A stretch of DNA of 64,000 nt from the NCBI RefSeq assembly GCF_024502345.1, contig NZ_JALDNN010000001.1. One strand, given 5' to 3'. This stretch comes from Escherichia coli. Lineage in GTDB: Bacteria > Pseudomonadota > Gammaproteobacteria > Enterobacterales > Enterobacteriaceae. Each line of letters starts with the position of its first letter. Position 1 is the stretch's first letter. The notes beneath the pieces are model-generated. The model ran no database searches, was not told the origin of the DNA, and was given only the letters and a program-made list of their open reading frames with translations. The translations under genes were made by a program, and so were the position numbers. Below, piece after piece: positions 3,909 to 52,265 of this stretch.

Positions 3909-4361
3909 CTACCAGCGTTTTGCCGCCTGCTGATCGCTCTCCCGAGCTTCGACCCAGCGGTCGCCCTCCGGCGTGGCTTCGCGCTTCCAGAACGGTGCGC
4001 GGGTTTTGAGATAATCCATAATAAACTGCCCGGCTTCAAACGCACTGCTGCGATGCGCACTGGTGACACCGACAAAAACGATTTCATCGCCCGGCCATAA
4101 TTCCCCGATGCGGTGAATCACCGTGACGCGCCCCAGCGGCCAGCGGTTACGCGCTTCATCGACAATTTCTGCCAGTGCTTTTTCAGTCATCCCCGGATAG
4201 TGTTCGAGGGTTAATGCTTTGACGCTGTCGCCCAGGTTATGGTTGCGCACCTTACCGGTAAAGGTGACTACCGCACCGTCTTCGTCACGCTCCGCCAGCC
4301 ACGGGTACTCTTCTCCTACGCTGAACGGCTGCGGACCAACAACAATTTTGGTTTCTGCCAT
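3909..4361 (-). CDS. moaE: Molybdopterin synthase catalytic subunit MoaE
   Basis: 150 aa; sequence matches remembered MoaE; last gene of moaABCDE. Confidence 0.95.
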   Translation of the reverse strand: MAETKIVVGPQPFSVGEEYPWLAERDEDGAVVTFTGKVRNHNLGDSVKALTLEHYPGMTEKALAEIVDEARNRWPLGRVTVIHRIGELWPGDEIVFVGVTSAHRSSAFEAGQFIMDYLKTRAPFWKREATPEGDRWVEARESDQQAAKRW

Positions 4362-4362
4362 C

Positions 4363-4608
4363 TTAACCTCCGGTTACCGGCGGGAAGAAAGCTACTTCGT
4401 CGCCGTCAGTCAGCGGATGGTCAAAACTCACCAGCGTCTGGTTGACGGCAGCCAGTAATTTGCCATCTTCCAGCGCCAGCGCCCAGCGATCGCTCTGCGC
4501 AGCCAGGTGCTGGCGTAACGCTTCAACGGTTGGGAAATCCGCAGCCACTTCGGTTGCATCTGTTCCTACCAACTCGCGCACCTGGGCGAAAAAAAGAACT
4601 TTAATCAT
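4363..4608 (-). CDS. moaD: Molybdopterin synthase sulfur-carrier subunit MoaD
   Basis: 81 aa from [13 protein letters not shown] to C-terminal GG; ORF-track start is an upstream alternative start overlapping moaC. Confidence 0.9.
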
Positions 4609-5086
4609 CCGCTTCCACCTTAAAGTCACCCGACTTGCCGCCGCTCTTCGCCAGCAAACGTACCGGACCAATCACCATATCTTTTTGCACCGCTTTGCAC
4701 ATGTCATAAATGGTCAGCGCCGCCACGGAGGCCGCGGTTAACGCTTCCATTTCGACACCGGTTTTCCCGGTCAGGCGGCATAAGGTTTCTATACGCACCC
4801 GATTGTGCTCCGGCTCGGCCTGTAAATTGACTTCAACTTTGCTGAGCATCAGCGGATGACAGAGCGGGATCAGATCCCAGGTGCGTTTTGCCGCCTGAAT
4901 ACCGGCAATACGCGCAGTGGCAAATACGTCGCCTTTGTGGTGGCGACCATCAATAATCATCGCCAGCGTCTCGCTGCGCATGGTGACAAAGGCTTCCGCC
5001 CGCGCTTCACGCACGGTTTCCGCTTTGGCGGAGACATCCACCATGTGCGCTTCGCCAGCGGCGTTGATATGGGTCAGTTGCGACAT
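4601..5086 (-). CDS. moaC: Cyclic pyranopterin monophosphate synthase MoaC
   Basis: 161 aa; matches remembered MoaC; 8 nt overlap with moaD. Confidence 0.95.
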
Positions 5087-5088
5087 AC

Positions 5089-5601
5089 TTATTTCTTCAA
5101 ATGTGGATGGAAATTACACGGACGCGTACGGGCATCCAGCTGCGGCGCGATGATATTTTCCCATGCGGTACGGCACGCTTTGGTCGAACCCGGCATGGCG
5201 AAAATCAGCGTTTTGTTGGCGACGCCCGCTACCGCACGAGATTGCAACGTGGAAGTGCCAATCTCTTCAAAAGACAACATCCGGAACACTTCACCAAAAC
5301 CTTCAACTTCACGGTCGAACAACGGCAGCAATGCTTCGGGAGCCTGATCACCTTCCGTCAGGCCAGTACCACCCGTAATCAATACCACTTGTACATCGTC
5401 GCTGGCGATCCACGCAGATACCTGAGCGCGAATAGCGTAGCGGTTTTCTTTCACAATGGCTTTATCGACAACGTGATGGCCCGCTTCTTGCGCCGAATCG
5501 CGCAGATAGTGACCGGAGGTATCGTCTTCTTCACCGCGACGATTAGAAACCGTAAGAATAGCAATACGGGTCGGGATAAATTCAGTGCTTACCTGACTCA
5601 T
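5089..5601 (-). CDS. moaB: Molybdenum cofactor biosynthesis protein MoaB
   Basis: 170 aa MogA/MoaB-fold ORF in operon position. Confidence 0.95.
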
Positions 5602-5622
5602 CTGATCTCTCCTTTTGACGTT

Positions 5623-6612
5623 TTAGCCGCCAATGTACGATAAGTTTTGCGTAATACCGGTGTTGTTTTGATGCAGGAAATGGGTCTGTTTCTTCTCCCG
5701 CAGCGCCGCTGAAATACGCGCTTCCAGCGCCTGTTGCTGGGTATCGTCTTCCAGCAGATCGCGCAGGTTAACGCCGCCTTCACCAAACAGGCAGAGATGG
5801 AGTTTACCAATGGAGGAAACGCGCAGGCGGTTGCAAGTGGCGCAGAAGTCTTTTTCATACGGCATGATAAGGCCAATCTCTCCGGCGTAATCTGGATGGC
5901 AAAAGACTTGCGCGGGACCGTCGCTGCGTTGACGTAATTGGTGGATCCAGCCGCGACGCAGTAGCTCGTCACGCAGAACCTGACCAGAGATGTGATGCTT
6001 ACGGAAGAGCTCGCTGCCCTCGCCCGTTTCCATCAGTTCGATGAAACGCAGCTGGATAGGGCGATGCTGGATCCAGTTCAGAAAGGTGTCGAGCTGGTGA
6101 TGATTAACATCACGCATCAGCACGGTATTGACTTTGACCTTCTCAAAACCGGCCTCAAATGCAGCATCAATCCCCGCCATGACCTGGTTGAATTTATCCT
6201 GCCCGGTAATAGCGTGAAACTGGCGGGCGTCCAGACTGTCGACACTGACGTTAATGCCAGTAAGTCCCGCATCGCGCCAGTTCGCCACATCGCGTTCCAG
6301 ACGGTAACCATTGGTGGTGACCGCAATCTGGCGGATAGCGTCGTTTTCCCGCACAGCGGCGATGATATCGGTAAAGTCGCGGCGTAAAGACGGCTCACCG
6401 CCTGTCAGGCGCACTTTTTCGGTGCCCAGACTGGCGAAGGCGCGCGTAACCCGGCGAATTTCATCGACGGTAAGAAAGCCTTTATTGGTGACGCCGCTCG
6501 GTTTGTAGCCATCCGGCAGGCAGTAGGTGCAACGAAAGTTACACACATCGGTAATCGACAGGCGCAAGTAGTAAAACTTACGCGCAAATGCATCAGTCAG
6601 TTGTGAAGCCAT
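5623..6612 (-). CDS. moaA: GTP 3',8-cyclase MoaA (radical SAM)
   Basis: CNFRCTYC radical-SAM cysteine motif; start set at MASQLTDAF (329 aa) rather than upstream alternative start. Confidence 0.95.
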
Positions 6613-6760
6613 GTACACCTTTCCAGATACGGGAGGCGAAGTCATTTCTTCCTTCGCCCTGGTGGCAATCTTTACGAGCATTGTCACGGCCAAAGCACCG
6701 TATCAGTTGACCCAGGTGCAGAGGCTAGAGTGTTTAGTGGTTATGCCGATACTAGCGTGT
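6613..6760 (-). promoter_or_regulatory. moaA 5' leader; expected location of the molybdenum-cofactor (Moco) riboswitch
   Basis: Long structured leader directly upstream of moaA ending in ..ggaaaggtgtacATG; Moco RNA is known in E. coli moaA leader; exact boundaries not determined. Confidence 0.55.
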
Positions 6761-6948
6761 AAATGAGATTTTTACCATCCACACTTTCGCTATGTAATCA
6801 TGTATATAGCGTCATGATCGTGCTATTTCGCTACAGAATAAGGGAAAATGGCGGTTTTACTTTGATATACATCATCAGGGAGGCATAGCGTGCATCGTCC
6901 TTTAGAGGTAGAAGAAAATAGTTTGTATCCTCAATATTGGCAGGTTAA

Positions 6949-7917
<969 letters not shown>

Positions 7918-7974: not shown

Positions 7975-8071
7975 GCCGGATGCGGCGTGAACGCCTTATC
8001 CGGCCTACAAACCGCGCAAATTCAATATATTGCGGAGAAAATGTAGGCCTGATAAGCGTAGCGCATCAGGC
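7975..8071. repeat. REP elements (pair) between ybhK and uvrB
   Basis: gccggatgcggcgtgaacgccttatccggcctac and gtaggcctgataagcgtagcgcatcaggc match the E. coli REP consensus family. Confidence 0.7.
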
Positions 8072-17671: not shown

Positions 17672-17878
<207 letters not shown>

Positions 17879-27104: not shown

Positions 27105-27794
27105 TTAGCGCCCCGCCCGTTCACGGCTGATTCTGGCCAGCCATTCTGAAATCAACAGGGAGATCATCGCCAGTGCAATAGAAATAATGCACAGTCTCGC
27201 CGCTCCACTTTCCCCGCCGGGGGTCTGGATCAGGGTATACATGGCAGAAGGAATGGTTCGCGTTTCACCAGGAATGTTCGACACAAAGGTGATGGTTGCA
27301 CCAAACTCACCGAGAGAACGAGCAAAAGCCAGTACCGTACCAACAATAATGCCCGGTAATGTCAGCGGTAACGTGATAGTAAAGAAAACGCGCCAGCGCC
27401 CGGCCCCCAGTGTTCTTGCGGCCTGTTCCAGTTTGACATCAACCCCTTCCAGCGCCAGACGAATTGCCCGCACCATCAGCGGAAACGACATGACGGCGGC
27501 AGCGAGAACCGCGCCGCGCCAGCTAAAGGCGAAGGTAATACCAAACCAGTCATACAGACGTTCACCGATAAATCCGCGCCGTCCCATCGAAACTAATAAT
27601 AAGTAACCGACGACCACGGGCGGTAACACCAGCGGTAGATGCAGTACGCTGTCGAGCAGAGCTTTGCCCGGAAACGTGCATCGCACCAGTAACCAGGCAA
27701 AAAAGATCCCAAACGGCAGGCTAAACAGCACAGCCAGGGAAGAAACTTTCAGGCTTAATAAAACTGCCTGCCATTCTGGATCGGTCAGTATCAT
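27105..27794 (-). CDS. modB: Molybdate ABC transporter permease
   Basis: 229 aa permease in operon position. Confidence 0.95.
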
Positions 27795-28567
27795 TACTTG
27801 GTTGTAAATCCGTAACGTTTAAAGATTTCCGCTGCCTGCGGTCCCTTCAGATAATCATAAAATGCTTTCACTGTCGCATTGTTATGCCCTTCCACAACAG
27901 CAACCGGATATTCCACTTTTTTATGTGAATCTTCCGGGAAGGTGGCAACCACTTTTACCCCTTTGCTGGCAACTGCGTCAGAACCGTAAACAATACCCAA
28001 CGGCGCTTCATTGCGTTCGACCAACGCCAGCGCGCCACGAACATCTTCCGCCGGAGCCAGTTTCGGGGAGAGCGTATCCCATGCGCCCAGTTTTTGCAGT
28101 GCTTCTTTTGCATAAATGCCAGCAGGGACATGTTCCGGATCGCCAACCGCGAGGCGACCGCCATTCAGCAGCGAAGTCCAGTTAGTTTTGCTGTCGATGA
28201 TGAAATCTTTCTGCTCGCTGGCTTTCGGTGCTACAACGACCAGGCTATTGCCGAGCAGTGTCTGGCGCGAAGCCGTATCGATCGCTTTTTTATCAACCGC
28301 ATAATCCATCCATTTCTGATCGGCAGAAATAAACAGATCCGCAGGCGCACCCGCTTCAATCTGACGGGCGAGTGTAGATGACGAAGCGAAAGAAGAAACC
28401 ACATCCACGCCTTTCTCTTTTTTATACTGCGTAGCAATGTCCTGCATTGCGTTAGTCAGTGATGCGGCGGCGAACACCGTGATTTTCCCTTCATCTGCCA
28501 GTGCATTGCCAGCAACAGCGAAAGAGAGTGCCGCCCCGGCAAACAAGTTCAACCATTTACGAGCCAT
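27794..28567 (-). CDS. modA: Molybdate-binding periplasmic protein
   Basis: 257 aa with signal peptide; first gene of modABC. Confidence 0.95.
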   Translation of the reverse strand: MARKWLNLFAGAALSFAVAGNALADEGKITVFAAASLTNAMQDIATQYKKEKGVDVVSSFASSSTLARQIEAGAPADLFISADQKWMDYAVDKKAIDTASRQTLLGNSLVVVAPKASEQKDFIIDSKTNWTSLLNGGRLAVGDPEHVPAGIYAKEALQKLGAWDTLSPKLAPAEDVRGALALVERNEAPLGIVYGSDAVASKGVKVVATFPEDSHKKVEYPVAVVEGHNNATVKAFYDYLKGPQAAEIFKRYGFTTK

Positions 28568-28575
28568 TGGTAACC

Positions 28576-28610
28576 CCTTAATGTAACGTTATGTAGGCGA
28601 CAATATAACG
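28576..28610 (-). promoter_or_regulatory. ModE operator at the modA promoter
   Basis: Minus strand reads cgttatattgtcgcctacataacgttacattaagg, matching the remembered ModE site (CGTTATATT / TACAT). Confidence 0.8.
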
Positions 28611-29011: not shown

Positions 29012-29800
29012 ATGCAGGCCGAAATCCTTCTCACCCTTAAGCTCCAACAAAAATTATTCGCCGACCCGCGCCGCATTTCGCTACTAAAACACATTGCGCT
29101 TTCCGGTTCCATTAGCCAGGGAGCGAAAGATGCCGGTATCAGCTATAAAAGCGCCTGGGATGCCATTAACGAGATGAATCAGTTAAGTGAGCATATTCTG
29201 GTCGAGCGCGCAACAGGCGGTAAAGGTGGCGGCGGCGCAGTACTGACCCGCTATGGTCAGCAACTGATTCAGCTCTATGACTTACTGGCGCAAATCCAGC
29301 AAAAAGCCTTTGATGTGTTAAGTGACGATGACGCCCTGCCGCTGAACAGCCTGCTGGCCGCGATCTCACGTTTTTCACTGCAAACCAGCGCCCGTAACCA
29401 GTGGTTCGGCACCATCACCGCCCGCGATCATGATGACGTTCAACAGCATGTTGATGTCTTACTGGCTGACGGAAAAACACGCCTGAAAGTCGCAATTACC
29501 GCACAAAGCGGCGCGCGTCTGGGGCTGGATGAAGGCAAAGAAGTGTTGATATTGCTAAAAGCGCCGTGGGTAGGCATTACTCAGGACGAAGCGGTCGCGC
29601 AAAACGCTGACAACCAATTACCGGGTATTATTAGTCATATTGAGCGCGGCGCAGAGCAGTGCGAAGTATTAATGGCGCTACCGGACGGGCAAACACTGTG
29701 CGCCACAGTGCCGGTAAATGAAGCGACTTCTCTTCAGCAAGGACAGAATGTCACGGCCTACTTTAATGCCGACAGCGTGATTATCGCCACGCTGTGCTAA
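29012..29800 (+). CDS. modE: Molybdate-responsive transcriptional regulator ModE
   Basis: 262 aa; N-terminal HTH plus tandem Mop domains. Confidence 0.95.
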   Translation: MQAEILLTLKLQQKLFADPRRISLLKHIALSGSISQGAKDAGISYKSAWDAINEMNQLSEHILVERATGGKGGGGAVLTRYGQQLIQLYDLLAQIQQKAFDVLSDDDALPLNSLLAAISRFSLQTSARNQWFGTITARDHDDVQQHVDVLLADGKTRLKVAITAQSGARLGLDEGKEVLILLKAPWVGITQDEAVAQNADNQLPGIISHIERGAEQCEVLMALPDGQTLCATVPVNEATSLQQGQNVTAYFNADSVIIATLC

Positions 29801-41858: not shown

Positions 41859-41978
41859 TGGTGGGTCGTGCAGGATGACTCGCTTCGCTCGCCCTTCGGG
41901 CCGTCGCCGCGAGCGGCTCCGTTGTTTCGCTGCGCTCAACTCAAACCTGCTGCAGGTTCGAATCTTTGAGTATCGCAG
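41859..41978. repeat. tRNA-derived fragment block distal to lysQ
   Basis: 17 nt copy of tRNA-Lys 3' end (tggtgggtcgtgcagga) plus inverted T-arm-like gcaggttcgaatc; the 41823-41877 segment duplicates the terminator + tRNA 3' end at 41989-42031. Confidence 0.6.
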
Positions 41979-41984
41979 ATAGCA

Positions 41985-42010
41985 AAAAAGCGCCTTTAGG
42001 GCGCTTTTTT
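41985..42010 (-). terminator. Rho-independent terminator of the lysT tRNA operon
   Basis: aaaaaagcgcc-ctaa-aggcgctttttt hairpin directly 3' of last tRNA; second copy at about 41825-41850. Confidence 0.75.
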
Positions 42011-42014
42011 ACAT

Positions 42015-42090
42015 TGGTGGGTCGTGCAGGATTCGAACCTGCGACCAATTGATTAAAAGTCAACTGCTCTACCAACTGAGCTAACGACCC
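42015..42090 (-). tRNA. lysQ: tRNA-Lys (anticodon UUU)
   Basis: Exact 76 nt match to remembered E. coli tRNA-Lys incl. CCA; anticodon loop CUUUUAA. Confidence 0.95.
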
Positions 42091-42123
42091 CTTGCGGGAT
42101 TATGCTGCTTTAATCATTCAGGA

Positions 42124-42199
42124 TGGTGGGTCGTGCAGGATTCGAACCTGCGACCAATTGATTAAAAGTCAACTGCTCTACCAACTGAGCTAACGACCC
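42124..42199 (-). tRNA. lysZ: tRNA-Lys (anticodon UUU)
   Basis: Identical 76 nt tRNA-Lys copy. Confidence 0.95.
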
Positions 42200-42247
42200 A
42201 TACGGGTGTTACCTGAAAGATTTTTACTCGGGGCCAATCTTTAAGAT

Positions 42248-42323
42248 TGGTGGGTCGTGCAGGATTCGAACCTGCGACCAATTGATTAAAAGTCAACTGC
42301 TCTACCAACTGAGCTAACGACCC
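42248..42323 (-). tRNA. lysY: tRNA-Lys (anticodon UUU)
   Basis: Identical 76 nt tRNA-Lys copy. Confidence 0.95.
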
Positions 42324-42326
42324 GAG

Positions 42327-42402
42327 TGGTGGGTGATGACGGGATCGAACCGCCGACCCCCTCCTTGTAAGGGAGGTGCTCTCCCAGCTGAGCTAATCAC
42401 CC
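42327..42402 (-). tRNA. valZ: tRNA-Val (anticodon UAC)
   Basis: 76 nt match to remembered tRNA-Val(UAC); 3 nt spacer to lysY. Confidence 0.95.
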
Positions 42403-42453
42403 GATACTGCGCTAGATACTACAAACTACTTCCACCGAACCCACCGTAATTAG

Positions 42454-42529
42454 TGGTGGGTCGTGCAGGATTCGAACCTGCGACCAATTGATTAAAAGTC
42501 AACTGCTCTACCAACTGAGCTAACGACCC
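42454..42529 (-). tRNA. lysW: tRNA-Lys (anticodon UUU)
   Basis: Identical 76 nt tRNA-Lys copy. Confidence 0.95.
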
Positions 42530-42531
42530 GG

Positions 42532-42607
42532 TGGTGGGTGATGACGGGATCGAACCGCCGACCCCCTCCTTGTAAGGGAGGTGCTCTCCCAGCTGAGCTA
42601 ATCACCC
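42532..42607 (-). tRNA. valT: tRNA-Val (anticodon UAC)
   Basis: 76 nt tRNA-Val copy; 2 nt spacer to lysW. Confidence 0.95.
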
Positions 42608-42642
42608 GATACTACGCTGGATACTACAACTAACTATGTTAG

Positions 42643-42703
42643 TGGTGGGTCGTGCAGGATGACTCGACTTCGTCTCGCCCTTCGGGCCGTTGCTGATGCA
42701 ACG
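42643..42703 (-). repeat. tRNA-Lys 3'-end-derived pseudo-tRNA fragment in lysT-valT spacer
   Basis: tggtgggtcgtgcagga + tgactcg(a)cttcg(t)ctcgcccttcgggccg, near-identical to the fragment at 41859. Confidence 0.6.
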
Positions 42704-42742
42704 TTATCCTTCACGTTTTACTACCGCTTCCACCTTAGCGAT

Positions 42743-42818
42743 TGGTGGGTCGTGCAGGATTCGAACCTGCGACCAATTGATTAAAAGTCAACTGCTCTAC
42801 CAACTGAGCTAACGACCC
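42743..42818 (-). tRNA. lysT: tRNA-Lys (anticodon UUU)
   Basis: Identical 76 nt tRNA-Lys copy; first gene of operon. Confidence 0.95.
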
Positions 42819-42982: not shown

Positions 42983-43774
42983 TTACATCGCGTTCAGACG
43001 TTTTTGTGCCTGTTTAGCGCCATCAGTACCAGGGTATTTACTGATAACCTGCTGGTATACGGCTTTCGCTTTTGCGGTGTCACCTTTGTCCTGCATGATG
43101 ACGCCGACTTTAAACATCGCATCTGCAGCCTTTGGTGACTTCGGATAGTTTTTCACTACCGAAGCAAAATAGTACGCCGCATCATCTTTTTTACCCTTGT
43201 TGTAGTTTAACTGACCCAGCCAATAATTGGCGTTTGGCAGGTAAGTTGAATCAGGGTAATTTTTGATGAAATTCTGAAATGCCACCATTGCGTCATCCTG
43301 GCGGGATTTATCCTGCACCAGCGCAATAGCTGCATTGTAATCCGTGTTTGCATCACCGCTTTTCACCGGCGCGCCAGCATTCGCAGTACCAGCATCAGCT
43401 GTCGGCGTCGTTGATGCCGCCGCACCGCTTTGATCGACGCTGGTTGATTGCGCCGCTGCACCACCGCTGCTGAGGCTATCGATCTGCAACAGGATCTGCT
43501 TTTGCCGCTCCACGACCTGATTCAGTTGATACTGATTTTCCTGAATCTGACCACGCAGGGAATCAATATCGGATTGATTATCAGAGAGTTGTTGCTGGAG
43601 TTGGGTTAAAAGCTGGCTGTGAGCATTAGAAATACGCTCAAGTTGAGTGACGCGGTCTTCGACCGAGCCTGAGCCGACACTACTGATTGGTGCCTGAGCA
43701 AAAGCGGCCCAGGGGGCCGCTATACCAACCAGTAACGACAGACTCAATAGTTGATGTCTGAAGTTACTGCTCAT
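42983..43774 (-). CDS. cpoB: Cell division coordinator CpoB (YbgF), TPR protein
   Basis: 263 aa; signal peptide, coiled-coil, C-terminal TPR. Confidence 0.93.
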   Translation of the reverse strand: MSSNFRHQLLSLSLLVGIAAPWAAFAQAPISSVGSGSVEDRVTQLERISNAHSQLLTQLQQQLSDNQSDIDSLRGQIQENQYQLNQVVERQKQILLQIDSLSSGGAAAQSTSVDQSGAAASTTPTADAGTANAGAPVKSGDANTDYNAAIALVQDKSRQDDAMVAFQNFIKNYPDSTYLPNANYWLGQLNYNKGKKDDAAYYFASVVKNYPKSPKAADAMFKVGVIMQDKGDTAKAKAVYQQVISKYPGTDGAKQAQKRLNAM

Positions 43775-43783
43775 GCAATTCTC

Positions 43784-44329
<546 letters not shown>

Positions 44330-50345: not shown

Positions 50346-51914
50346 TTAGCGTGCCGGCTGAGTAGTCGTGGAAGACTGCTCAAAGTGATAGCGACCGGTT
50401 TTCAGGCTGCTTGGGCCGAGGCGTGCAAACTTGAACATTAAGAACAATTCTGCCACCAGGAACAGGGTATACAGGCCGCAAATCAGCACCATTGAGAAGA
50501 TGAGATCGCCTGCGGTCAGTGACGAGTTCGCCACAGCTGTCGGCAGCACTTCACCGATAGCCCACGGTTGGCGGCCATATTCAGCCACGAACCAGCCCGC
50601 TTCTACAGCAATCCACGGCAGCGGAATACCGTACAGCGCGGCGCGCAGCAGCCATTTTTTCTCGCCAATGCGGTTGCGGATGACACTCCAGAAAGAGAGC
50701 GCGATGATTGCCAGCAGCAGGAAGCCACACGCCACCATGATACGGAACGCGAAGTACAGCGGCGCTACACGCGGAATGGAGTCTTTGGTTGCCTGTTGAA
50801 TCTGCGCTTCAGTCGCATCAGCCACGTTTGGCGTATAGCGTTTCAGCAGCAGACCGTAACCGAGGTCTTTCTTCATGCTATTGAACTGGTCACGAACTGC
50901 CTGGTCGGTAGAACCAGAACGCAGTTGCTCGAGCAGAGAGTACGCCTTCATCCCGTTACGAATGCGTTCTTCATGCTGCACCATCAGTTCTTTCAGGCCG
51001 ATAACTGGAGTATCCACGGAACGCGTTGCAATGATGCCCAGCGCGTAAGGGATCTGGATCGCAAATTTGTTCGTCTCCTCTTCCTGATCAGGAATGCCGA
51101 ACAGAGTAAAGGCAGCAGGCGCAGGTTGCGTTTCCCACTCGGCTTCAATAGCAGCCAGTTTGGTTTTCTGCACGTCGCCCATTTCGTAACCAGATTCATC
51201 ACCCAGAACAATAACAGACAGAACGGCAGCCATACCGAAGCTGGCAGCGATAGCAAAGGAGCGTTTAGCGAAGGCGAAGTCACGACCTTTCAGCATATAC
51301 CATGCGCTGATACCGAGGATGAACATCGCGCCAGTCACATAACCAGACGCTACAGTGTGAACGAATTTCACCTGAGCAACCGGGTTAAGCACCAGCTCGG
51401 AGAAGCTCACCATCTCCATACGCATAGTTTCAAAGTTGAAATCGGACGCGATTGGGTTTTGCATCCAGCCGTTCGCAACCAGAATCCACAGTGCGGACAG
51501 GTTTGAACCGAGCGCCACCAGCCAGGTGACACACATATGCTGAACTTTACCCAGACGATCCCAACCGAAGAAGAACAGACCTACAAAGGTGGATTCGAGG
51601 AAGAAGGCCATCAGACCTTCGATTGCCAGCGGCGCACCGAAGATATCCCCTACATAGTGGGAATAGTAAGACCAGTTAGTCCCGAACTGGAACTCCATGG
51701 TCAGACCGGTAGCCACACCCAGAGCGAAGTTGATACCAAACAACTTGCCCCAGAACTTGGTCATATCTTTATAAATCTGTTTGCCGGAAAGGACGTAGAC
51801 CGTTTCCATAATGGCCAGCAGGAACGCCATACCGAGCGTCAGTGGCACAAAAAGGAAGTGGTACATCGCGGTCAAGGCAAACTGTAAGCGCGACAGTTCG
51901 ACTATATCTAACAT
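50346..51914 (-). CDS. cydA: Cytochrome bd-I ubiquinol oxidase subunit I
   Basis: 522 aa from [15 protein letters not shown]. Confidence 0.95.
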
Positions 51915-52251
51915 CATGACTCCTTGCTCATCGCATGAAGACTCCGAGAGTGAACCCCGTTAGAAAGGGTCACACGCATGCCCCAATACAAAATTATTTG
52001 CTCGCCTCTATCGTTGCCATTTCATCAAAAGAGGAAAAGACAATGATAAAAAAGTTACAAATATGTTAATGAATAAACCAAATTGATCCCGTAATTATAT
52101 TACGCCGCAAAATCCTTACAATAAACAGGTTTTTATTGAGCAAATTTGCATTTTTCGACAGTGATCAATTTATAGCGAAATTGTCACGATCTCACCAATT
52201 TGATCTACGACAATTTATCGTGTTTTGCAGATTTTTTTCAAGAATTAAAAA

Positions 52252-52265
52252 TTGATTTATATCAA
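52252..52265. promoter_or_regulatory. FNR-type box in the cydA upstream region
   Basis: ttgatttatatcaa = TTGAT-N4-ATCAA about 340 bp upstream of cydA. Confidence 0.55.

Follow-up and report, generated by a model that had tools for sequence, protein, structure and literature searches.

The leader of moaABCDE in Escherichia coli is very probably the known molybdenum cofactor riboswitch: architecture, covariation and regulatory setting

What kind of element lies upstream of moaA in Escherichia coli, and by which route may it act on the operon that it precedes? The window considered here is a stretch of 64,000 nucleotides (RefSeq assembly GCF_024502345.1, contig NZ_JALDNN010000001.1), in which the spacer between moaA and the divergent yvcK gene covers 6613..7008. 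An earlier note, made from the letters alone, had read positions 6613-6760 as a structured leader consistent with the molybdenum cofactor (Moco) riboswitch, and had named the lack of a match to the Moco covariance model as the result that would speak against this reading. The whole window was scanned against Rfam 15 at gathering thresholds, and the minus strand of 6744..6600 was identified as a full-length match to the Moco RNA motif RF01055 (Molybdenum/Tungsten riboswitch aptamer), covering model positions 1-135 of 135 and scoring 103.6 bits where the gathering score is 36 (E 1.1e-24). No second RF01055 match was found anywhere in the window. Furthermore, the window contains a single copy of the core pattern GAAA-N8-CCTCCC-N6-GGAAAGG, where shuffles predict 0.00.

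Of 5426 complete E. coli genomes, 5424 carry the segment 7010..6560, and 5077 carry it with an identity of at least 99%. Compared with E. coli K-12 MG1655, the sole difference in 7020..6560 is base 6980, which is located far upstream and outside the RNA and is likewise the sole difference from the best E. coli matches. The 145-nt riboswitch is identical in E. coli strain E2865, where the homologous 145 nt carry the RefSeq label “molybdenum cofactor riboswitch.” The earlier note had also stated that this riboswitch was defined in the E. coli moaA leader; the sequence studied here equals that K-12 leader, and published experiments on the K-12 moaA leader thus apply without reservation. We conclude that the stretch is very probably the moaA Moco riboswitch of E. 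coli, acting in cis as a translational OFF switch in the moaABCDE leader. The moaA Moco riboswitch is already known; it is the type example of its riboswitch class, which was described in 2008. Everything that we tested is alike in our RNA and in the Moco RNA motif RF01055 (Regulski et al., 2008), of which E. coli moaA is the representative: stems P1-P5, the GAAA tetraloop, the presence of P3, the ribosome binding site in P1, the place before moaABCDE and the sequence identity to K-12.

The feature belongs to the minus strand, which corrects the earlier note; the approximate place proposed there stands but the exact limits do not, since the RNA starts 16 nt inside the upstream limit and ends 13 nt into the moaA coding sequence. 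Nor is the leader “G/C-rich,” as had been stated: its G+C content of 51% equals the window mean of 50.7% and is higher only than that of the rest of the spacer (40.9%). The embedded ribosome binding site was found as described (ggaaaggtgtacATG, minus strand 6624..6610, with the ATG at 6612..6610). The riboswitch is situated directly upstream of moaA and on the same strand, as a Moco motif before a Moco biosynthesis gene (Table 1). An open reading frame on the opposite strand (6611..6766, +, 51 aa) was rejected as a mechanical complement of the riboswitch with no support.

Table 1. Features of the moaA leader, its putative control sites and the adjoining genes, in window coordinates.
Feature	Position	Strand	Basis or remark
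Moco riboswitch, aptamer with built-in expression platform	6600..6744	-	RF01055, RefSeq annotation, K-12 identity
P1, outer pairs	6742-6739 with 6609-6606	-	Rfam consensus mapping
P1, inner pairs, U6729 bulged	6734-6728 with 6619-6614	-	Rfam consensus mapping
P1, 5' strand	6728..6742	-	Rfam consensus mapping
P2, with internal loops	6689..6725 (6725-6715 with 6699-6689; distal hairpin 6711-6702)	-	
P3 stem-loop, GUG-A-CAAU...AUUG-C-CAC	6662..6687	-	
P4	6634..6659 (GAAA tetraloop 6648-6645; GGA motif 6652-6650)	-	
P5 mini-hairpin, CC-N7-GG	6623..6633 (6633-6632 with 6624-6623)	-	Within the CCUCCC...GGAAAGG core
Shine-Dalgarno purines AAAGGUGUA	6614..6622	-	GGUGUA 6619-6614 is the inner P1 3' strand
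moaA start codon AUG	6610..6612	-	Flanked by inner P1 and the 3' strand of outer P1 (6609-6606)
Probable proximal transcription start S1, ModE-dependent	6742..6743	-	Literature distance and primer
ModE-operator-like TATAT-N7-TACAT in palindrome CGCTATATACATGATTACATAGCG	6792..6808	-	Pattern match
FNR-box-like ATGATgtatATCAA	6862..6875	-	One mismatch to TTGAT-N4-ATCAA; upstream of distal start S2
Abundant RNA 3' end, K-12 coordinate 817052	6604	-	Term-seq, supplement of Adams et al., 2021 (PMC7815308)
Regulated operon moaA-moaB-moaC-moaD-moaE	3909..6612	-	
moaA, 329-aa ORF	6612-5623	-	NCBIfam equivalog TIGR02666 MoaA, 369.7 bits, cutoff 284
moaB	5601-5089	-	NCBIfam equivalog match
moaC	5086-4601	-	NCBIfam equivalog match
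moaD	4608-4363	-	One residue (L/M) off the RefSeq-annotated protein of E2865
moaE	4361-3909	-	Identical to the RefSeq-annotated protein of E2865
yvcK/ybhK, divergent from moaA	starts 7009	+	

The Rfam consensus structure was mapped onto the sequence, with RNA position p corresponding to window position 6745-p, and all five stems could be placed. As for the secondary-structure check suggested in the earlier note, the consensus stems are placeable but the single-sequence minimum free energy (MFE) fold does not reproduce the aptamer. The sequestration of the ribosome binding site, which the note had given as established, agrees with the location of this site in the 3' strand of P1. Since the Shine-Dalgarno (SD) sequence is part of this strand and the AUG lies between the two parts of the stem, a closed P1 buries both. 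The same arrangement in E. coli has been described before (Regulski et al., 2008; PMC2408646), and this spacing recurs in the other gammaproteobacteria that we examined. The junction nucleotides (AGC..., GCC, AGGG and CCUCCC...GGAAAGG) are invariant in 25 species, including the CCUCCC...GGAAAGG core of the P5 region in 25 of 25 aligned species. Non-canonical in E. coli are three pairs in P2, one in P3, two in P4 and one in P1.

Compared with the RF01055 consensus, Escherichia and Citrobacter are peculiar in that P1 contains a bulged U, P2 has a U-rich internal loop and the tetraloop receptor is a variant. The receptor in P2 (6715-6710 and 6701-6697) reads CCUGGG...UACGG in these two genera, against the canonical 11-nt motif CCUAAG...UAUGG in the majority of Moco RNAs from other gammaproteobacteria. 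The GAAA loop is in place on P4; the receptor in P2 is a sequence variant, which may or may not dock. The presence of P3 assigns the RNA to the Moco subclass as opposed to Tuco, as judged from sequence by a criterion proposed earlier (Regulski et al., 2008; PMC2408646). The variants proposed to sense the tungsten cofactor (Tuco/Wco) share the core junction, P1, P2, P4 and P5 with the moaA RNA but lack P3, which the moaA RNA has at 6687-6662, in keeping with an E. coli reporter without tungstate response.

Conservation of the structure was assessed in 25 gammaproteobacterial moaA leaders, which were aligned with MAFFT, a structure-blind method, and onto which the Rfam structure was projected via the E. 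coli row. Between 76.9 and 81.5% of the cells were paired in this structure, as compared to 35-49% when the 3' partners were slid by 1-3 columns. The number of cells changed on both sides was 163, versus 70 ± 7 in shuffles, none of 500 of which reached 163. Changes on both sides were seen in 24-25 pairs across the 25 leaders, including 8 of the 11 proximal pairs of P2, 4 of the 5 pairs of P3 and 7 of the 11 pairs of P4, the latter with 88.7% of its cells paired. Only 44-56% of the cells in P1 were paired in the E. coli register versus 73.6% in the majority register, the low score being due to the bulged U of the enteric sequences, which shifts the register by one column. Without prior structure, RNAalifold recovered P2, P4 and a P5-like hairpin one column off the Rfam P5 from the 25-leader alignment. 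P1 and P3 were not recovered by RNAalifold from this alignment, P3 because its length varies and MAFFT aligns it poorly.

The core pattern was also searched for as an exact pattern in one genome per species, which returned at least 120 loci in many phyla. Complementary bases flank the GAAA, i.e., form the P4 stem, in nearly all of the listed loci as judged by eye, and three of the listed loci (L020, L040 and L062) look, again by eye, like chance matches. Among the matches listed, 40 of 123 motif instances are followed on the same strand by a MoaA homolog that begins no more than 400 nt away, and the moaA start codon is located within about 6 nt of GGAAAGG in all gammaproteobacterial instances listed. 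Some genomes contain many Moco motifs (L053, L064, L101 and several MAGs, L009-L014, L030-L034 and L090-L094), and tandem or closely spaced pairs were seen in Geothermobacter (L053, two copies 388 nt apart), Syntrophomonas (L064) and an actinomycetotal genome (L101). Multi-copy and tandem arrangements were described already in 2008.

The thermodynamic signal of the single sequence is weak. The MFE is -42 kcal/mol, versus -26.6 when only the canonical consensus pairs are taken and -33.2 with these pairs enforced, and the MFE fold differs from the aptamer. Relative to shuffles its z-score is -1.51, and 15 of 200 shuffles fold as well or better, which is what one might expect if the stretch were an unremarkable spacer that resembles a riboswitch by chance. 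The single-sequence MFE was rejected as a structure criterion, as neither the tertiary contacts nor the ligand are modelled. Against a chance resemblance stand the model match with an E-value of 1e-24, the covariation in 25 species and the identity to an experimentally characterized RNA, and we consider this explanation, already refuted by these results, to have a negligible probability.

We regard the stretch as the Moco riboswitch, and the question is then how it would act. The leader of moaABCDE would fold into an aptamer of five stems, in which the GAAA tetraloop of P4 would meet its receptor in P2. At high levels of Moco, or of a close product of the Moco pathway, the aptamer would be stabilized and P1 would close; with the SD in its 3' strand and the AUG between its inner and outer pairs, ribosomes could then not start on moaA, and the block would provide feedback on cofactor synthesis. 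The identity, architecture, covariation and gene context of the RNA come from the present analysis. Other parts of the scheme come from published work on the identical sequence. A translational moaA'-'lacZ fusion behind a constitutive promoter was repressed more than threefold on induction of the moa operon, and repression was lost in the P3 mutant M1, in which the stem is disrupted, and regained in M2, in which it is restored (Regulski et al., 2008; PMC2408646). Repression furthermore depends on the transport of molybdate and on the enzymes leading to Moco, yet not on MobA, and tungstate does not elicit it (Regulski et al., 2008; PMC2408646).

The direct binding of Moco to the RNA would be the inferred step in this scheme. 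Moco might instead be sensed by a protein that binds the conserved, structured leader, since the instability of Moco barred a binding test and the authors themselves left a protein factor possible (Regulski et al., 2008; PMC2408646). A 2024 paper still terms the exact effector unidentified, and only ligand-free folding work is mentioned for the Moco RNA in a 2023 review. The aptamer is indeed bound by one protein at least, CsrA, according to a review (PMC7652899). However, decades of moa genetics have yielded no such factor (Regulski et al., 2008; PMC2408646), and the motif is spread over many phyla. The forms with and without P3 track Moco versus tungsten-cofactor metabolism, as expected of a direct sensor (PMC2408646), and the conserved core of the junction looks like a pocket for a ligand. 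All in all, we find a protein sensor very improbable.

In the published mechanism, CsrA provides a second input to the Moco-responsive translational switch. The 145 nt contain exactly two GGA motifs, one in P4 (6652-6650) and one in P5 beside the SD (6624-6622). CsrA has been described to occupy two sites in the aptamer and to activate the translation of moaA, apparently by exposing the SD (PMC7652899, a review citing Patterson-Fortin, 2013), and the two GGA motifs would be the putative footprinted sites. In the proposed scheme, CsrA would thus bind at two sites of the aptamer and open the SD. The moaA leader, with its two GGA motifs, is in this respect like other CsrA-activated leaders, such as that of ymdA, in which CsrA on GGA motifs exposes the SD. 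It is also like the translational OFF riboswitches of E. coli, such as the TPP riboswitch of thiM and the cobalamin riboswitch of btuB, in placing the SD in a helix, whereas its fold is unrelated to the TPP and cobalamin aptamers. The combination of a cofactor-sensing aptamer and CsrA on one RNA domain was reported as the first dual control of this kind (PMC7652899).

Could the main output of the leader be premature termination or RNA processing, Rho-dependent or otherwise, rather than a block of translation? The abundant 3' end detected by Term-seq maps to 6604, as obtained by placing the K-12 coordinate on the window via the colinear K-12 alignment, which is 2 nt past the last pair of P1 and 9 nt into moaA. 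A Rho-dependent region has been located around 6320 inside moaA, and a moaA fusion is more than twofold up in a rho mutant (Adams et al., 2021; PMC7815308). However, the same study gave this 3' end at 6604 a Rho score of 1.24 and scored it “No” (PMC7815308). Our terminator scan identified none between the moaA promoters and moaA; the sole terminator-like site on the moaA strand is weak (7024-7011, a 5-pair stem), lies upstream of both promoters and falls where yvcK begins on the other strand. The SD and the AUG are, moreover, inside P1. An effect of Rho inside moaA is also the expected result if blocked translation exposes the untranslated mRNA to Rho, so that coupling of the two mechanisms is more probable than rivalry between them. 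We therefore think it improbable that termination or processing is the main output, and retain the translational block as the preferred reading. As a separate observation, the 3' end at 6604 implies that a stable fragment of riboswitch size, about 139 nt, is present in cells.

Transcription of the operon is set separately, by ModE in response to molybdate at the start site S1 and by FNR in response to anaerobiosis at S2. The ModE operator has the consensus TATAT-N7-TAYAT and the FNR box the consensus TTGAT-N4-ATCAA. Patterns similar to the ModE operator occur twice in the window against 0.15 expected, one copy in the moaA-yvcK spacer and one before modA. FNR-like patterns number 5 against 2.6 expected in the window, and the site upstream of moaA is thus not significant alone. 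A scan of 6500-7100 for the sigma-70 consensus gave no promoter-like site, which says little because the moa promoters depend on the activators ModE and FNR.

In previous work, S1 was reported to precede the start codon by 131 nt (Regulski et al., 2008; PMC2408646; Anderson, 2000), and a forward primer used for cloning moaA starts with AACCAC, at window position 6742 (Adams et al., 2021; PMC7815308). From these data, we infer that S1 is at 6742-6743, at the 5' edge of the Rfam match, which would give a proximal leader of 130-131 nt. ModE was reported to activate S1, and the FNR-dependent S2 was placed at -87 (Regulski et al., 2008; PMC2408646), which would correspond to a position near 6830. 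The ModE-like and FNR-like sites fit the reported control of S1 by ModE and of S2 by FNR, as far as pattern matches can indicate.

Elsewhere in the window, where the mod and cyd genes were named by NCBIfam on the open reading frames (the coordinate counterpart in E2865 being a prophage), the second ModE pattern lies at 28591-28607 (-), 24 nt upstream of modA (28567..27794), with modB (27794..27105) next and modE (29012..29800) divergent. The modABC genes of E. coli are without a Moco riboswitch, unlike in some other bacteria. A perfect FNR consensus (TTGATTTATATCAA) is present at 52252-52265, about 335 nt upstream of cydA (51917..50346, -), the product of which is cytochrome bd-I subunit I by NCBIfam.

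Several other RNA elements were recorded in the window. The strongest RNA-family match is the CpoB/ybgF intercistronic RNA thermometer RF02782 at 43745-43883 (-), full length and with 140.4 bits. Seven tRNA genes of two repeated sequence types (five at 79.2 bits and two at 65.9 bits) are clustered at 41859-42818 (-), and RtT-element matches (RF00391) lie in or beside this cluster at 42811-42643 and 41984-41859. Borderline matches, in both cases probably REP-type repeats, were obtained for naRNA4/CssrE at 17727-17797 (-; 60.7 bits versus a gathering score of 59.5) and for ES036/CssrF in the yvcK-uvrB spacer at 8009-8050 (+; 43.4 versus 37.6).

The mismatch between the aptamer and the predicted fold of the free RNA can be described further. 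For the S1 transcript, the predicted ensemble has the SD segment GGUGU (6619-6615) paired to 94% with GCACC (6719-6715) in the 5' strand of P2 and to 4% with P1. According to the energy model, the alternative partner is dominant among the 25 leaders in E. coli, E. albertii and Citrobacter and takes a different form in Idiomarina, as compared to a dominant pairing of the SD with P1 in Enterobacter, Vibrio, Aeromonas, Kangiella and most others. Escherichia and Citrobacter, with the alternative partner, are the same clade that has the deviant tetraloop receptor. According to in-line probing, the free RNA does not form P2 as drawn (Regulski et al., 2008; PMC2408646). The predicted pairing of the SD with P2 would agree with this result, a lead only, taken from an energy model and four sequences.

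The identification itself adds nothing new, as the NCBI pipeline already annotates the moaA riboswitch in E. coli genomes. The value of the locus is that of a positive control, in that a reading from sequence only placed a real regulatory RNA within about 15 nt. With regard to the biology of the leader, one speculative reading, which we hold to be rather unlikely, is that in Escherichia and Citrobacter the ligand-free leader is also closed, by the pairing of the SD with GCACC, and that the leader would be a three-state rather than a two-state device. The states would be an alternative closed fold, a fold opened by CsrA and an aptamer locked by Moco. If true, the three-state model may account for the need for an activator, CsrA, and for P2 not being seen by in-line probing.
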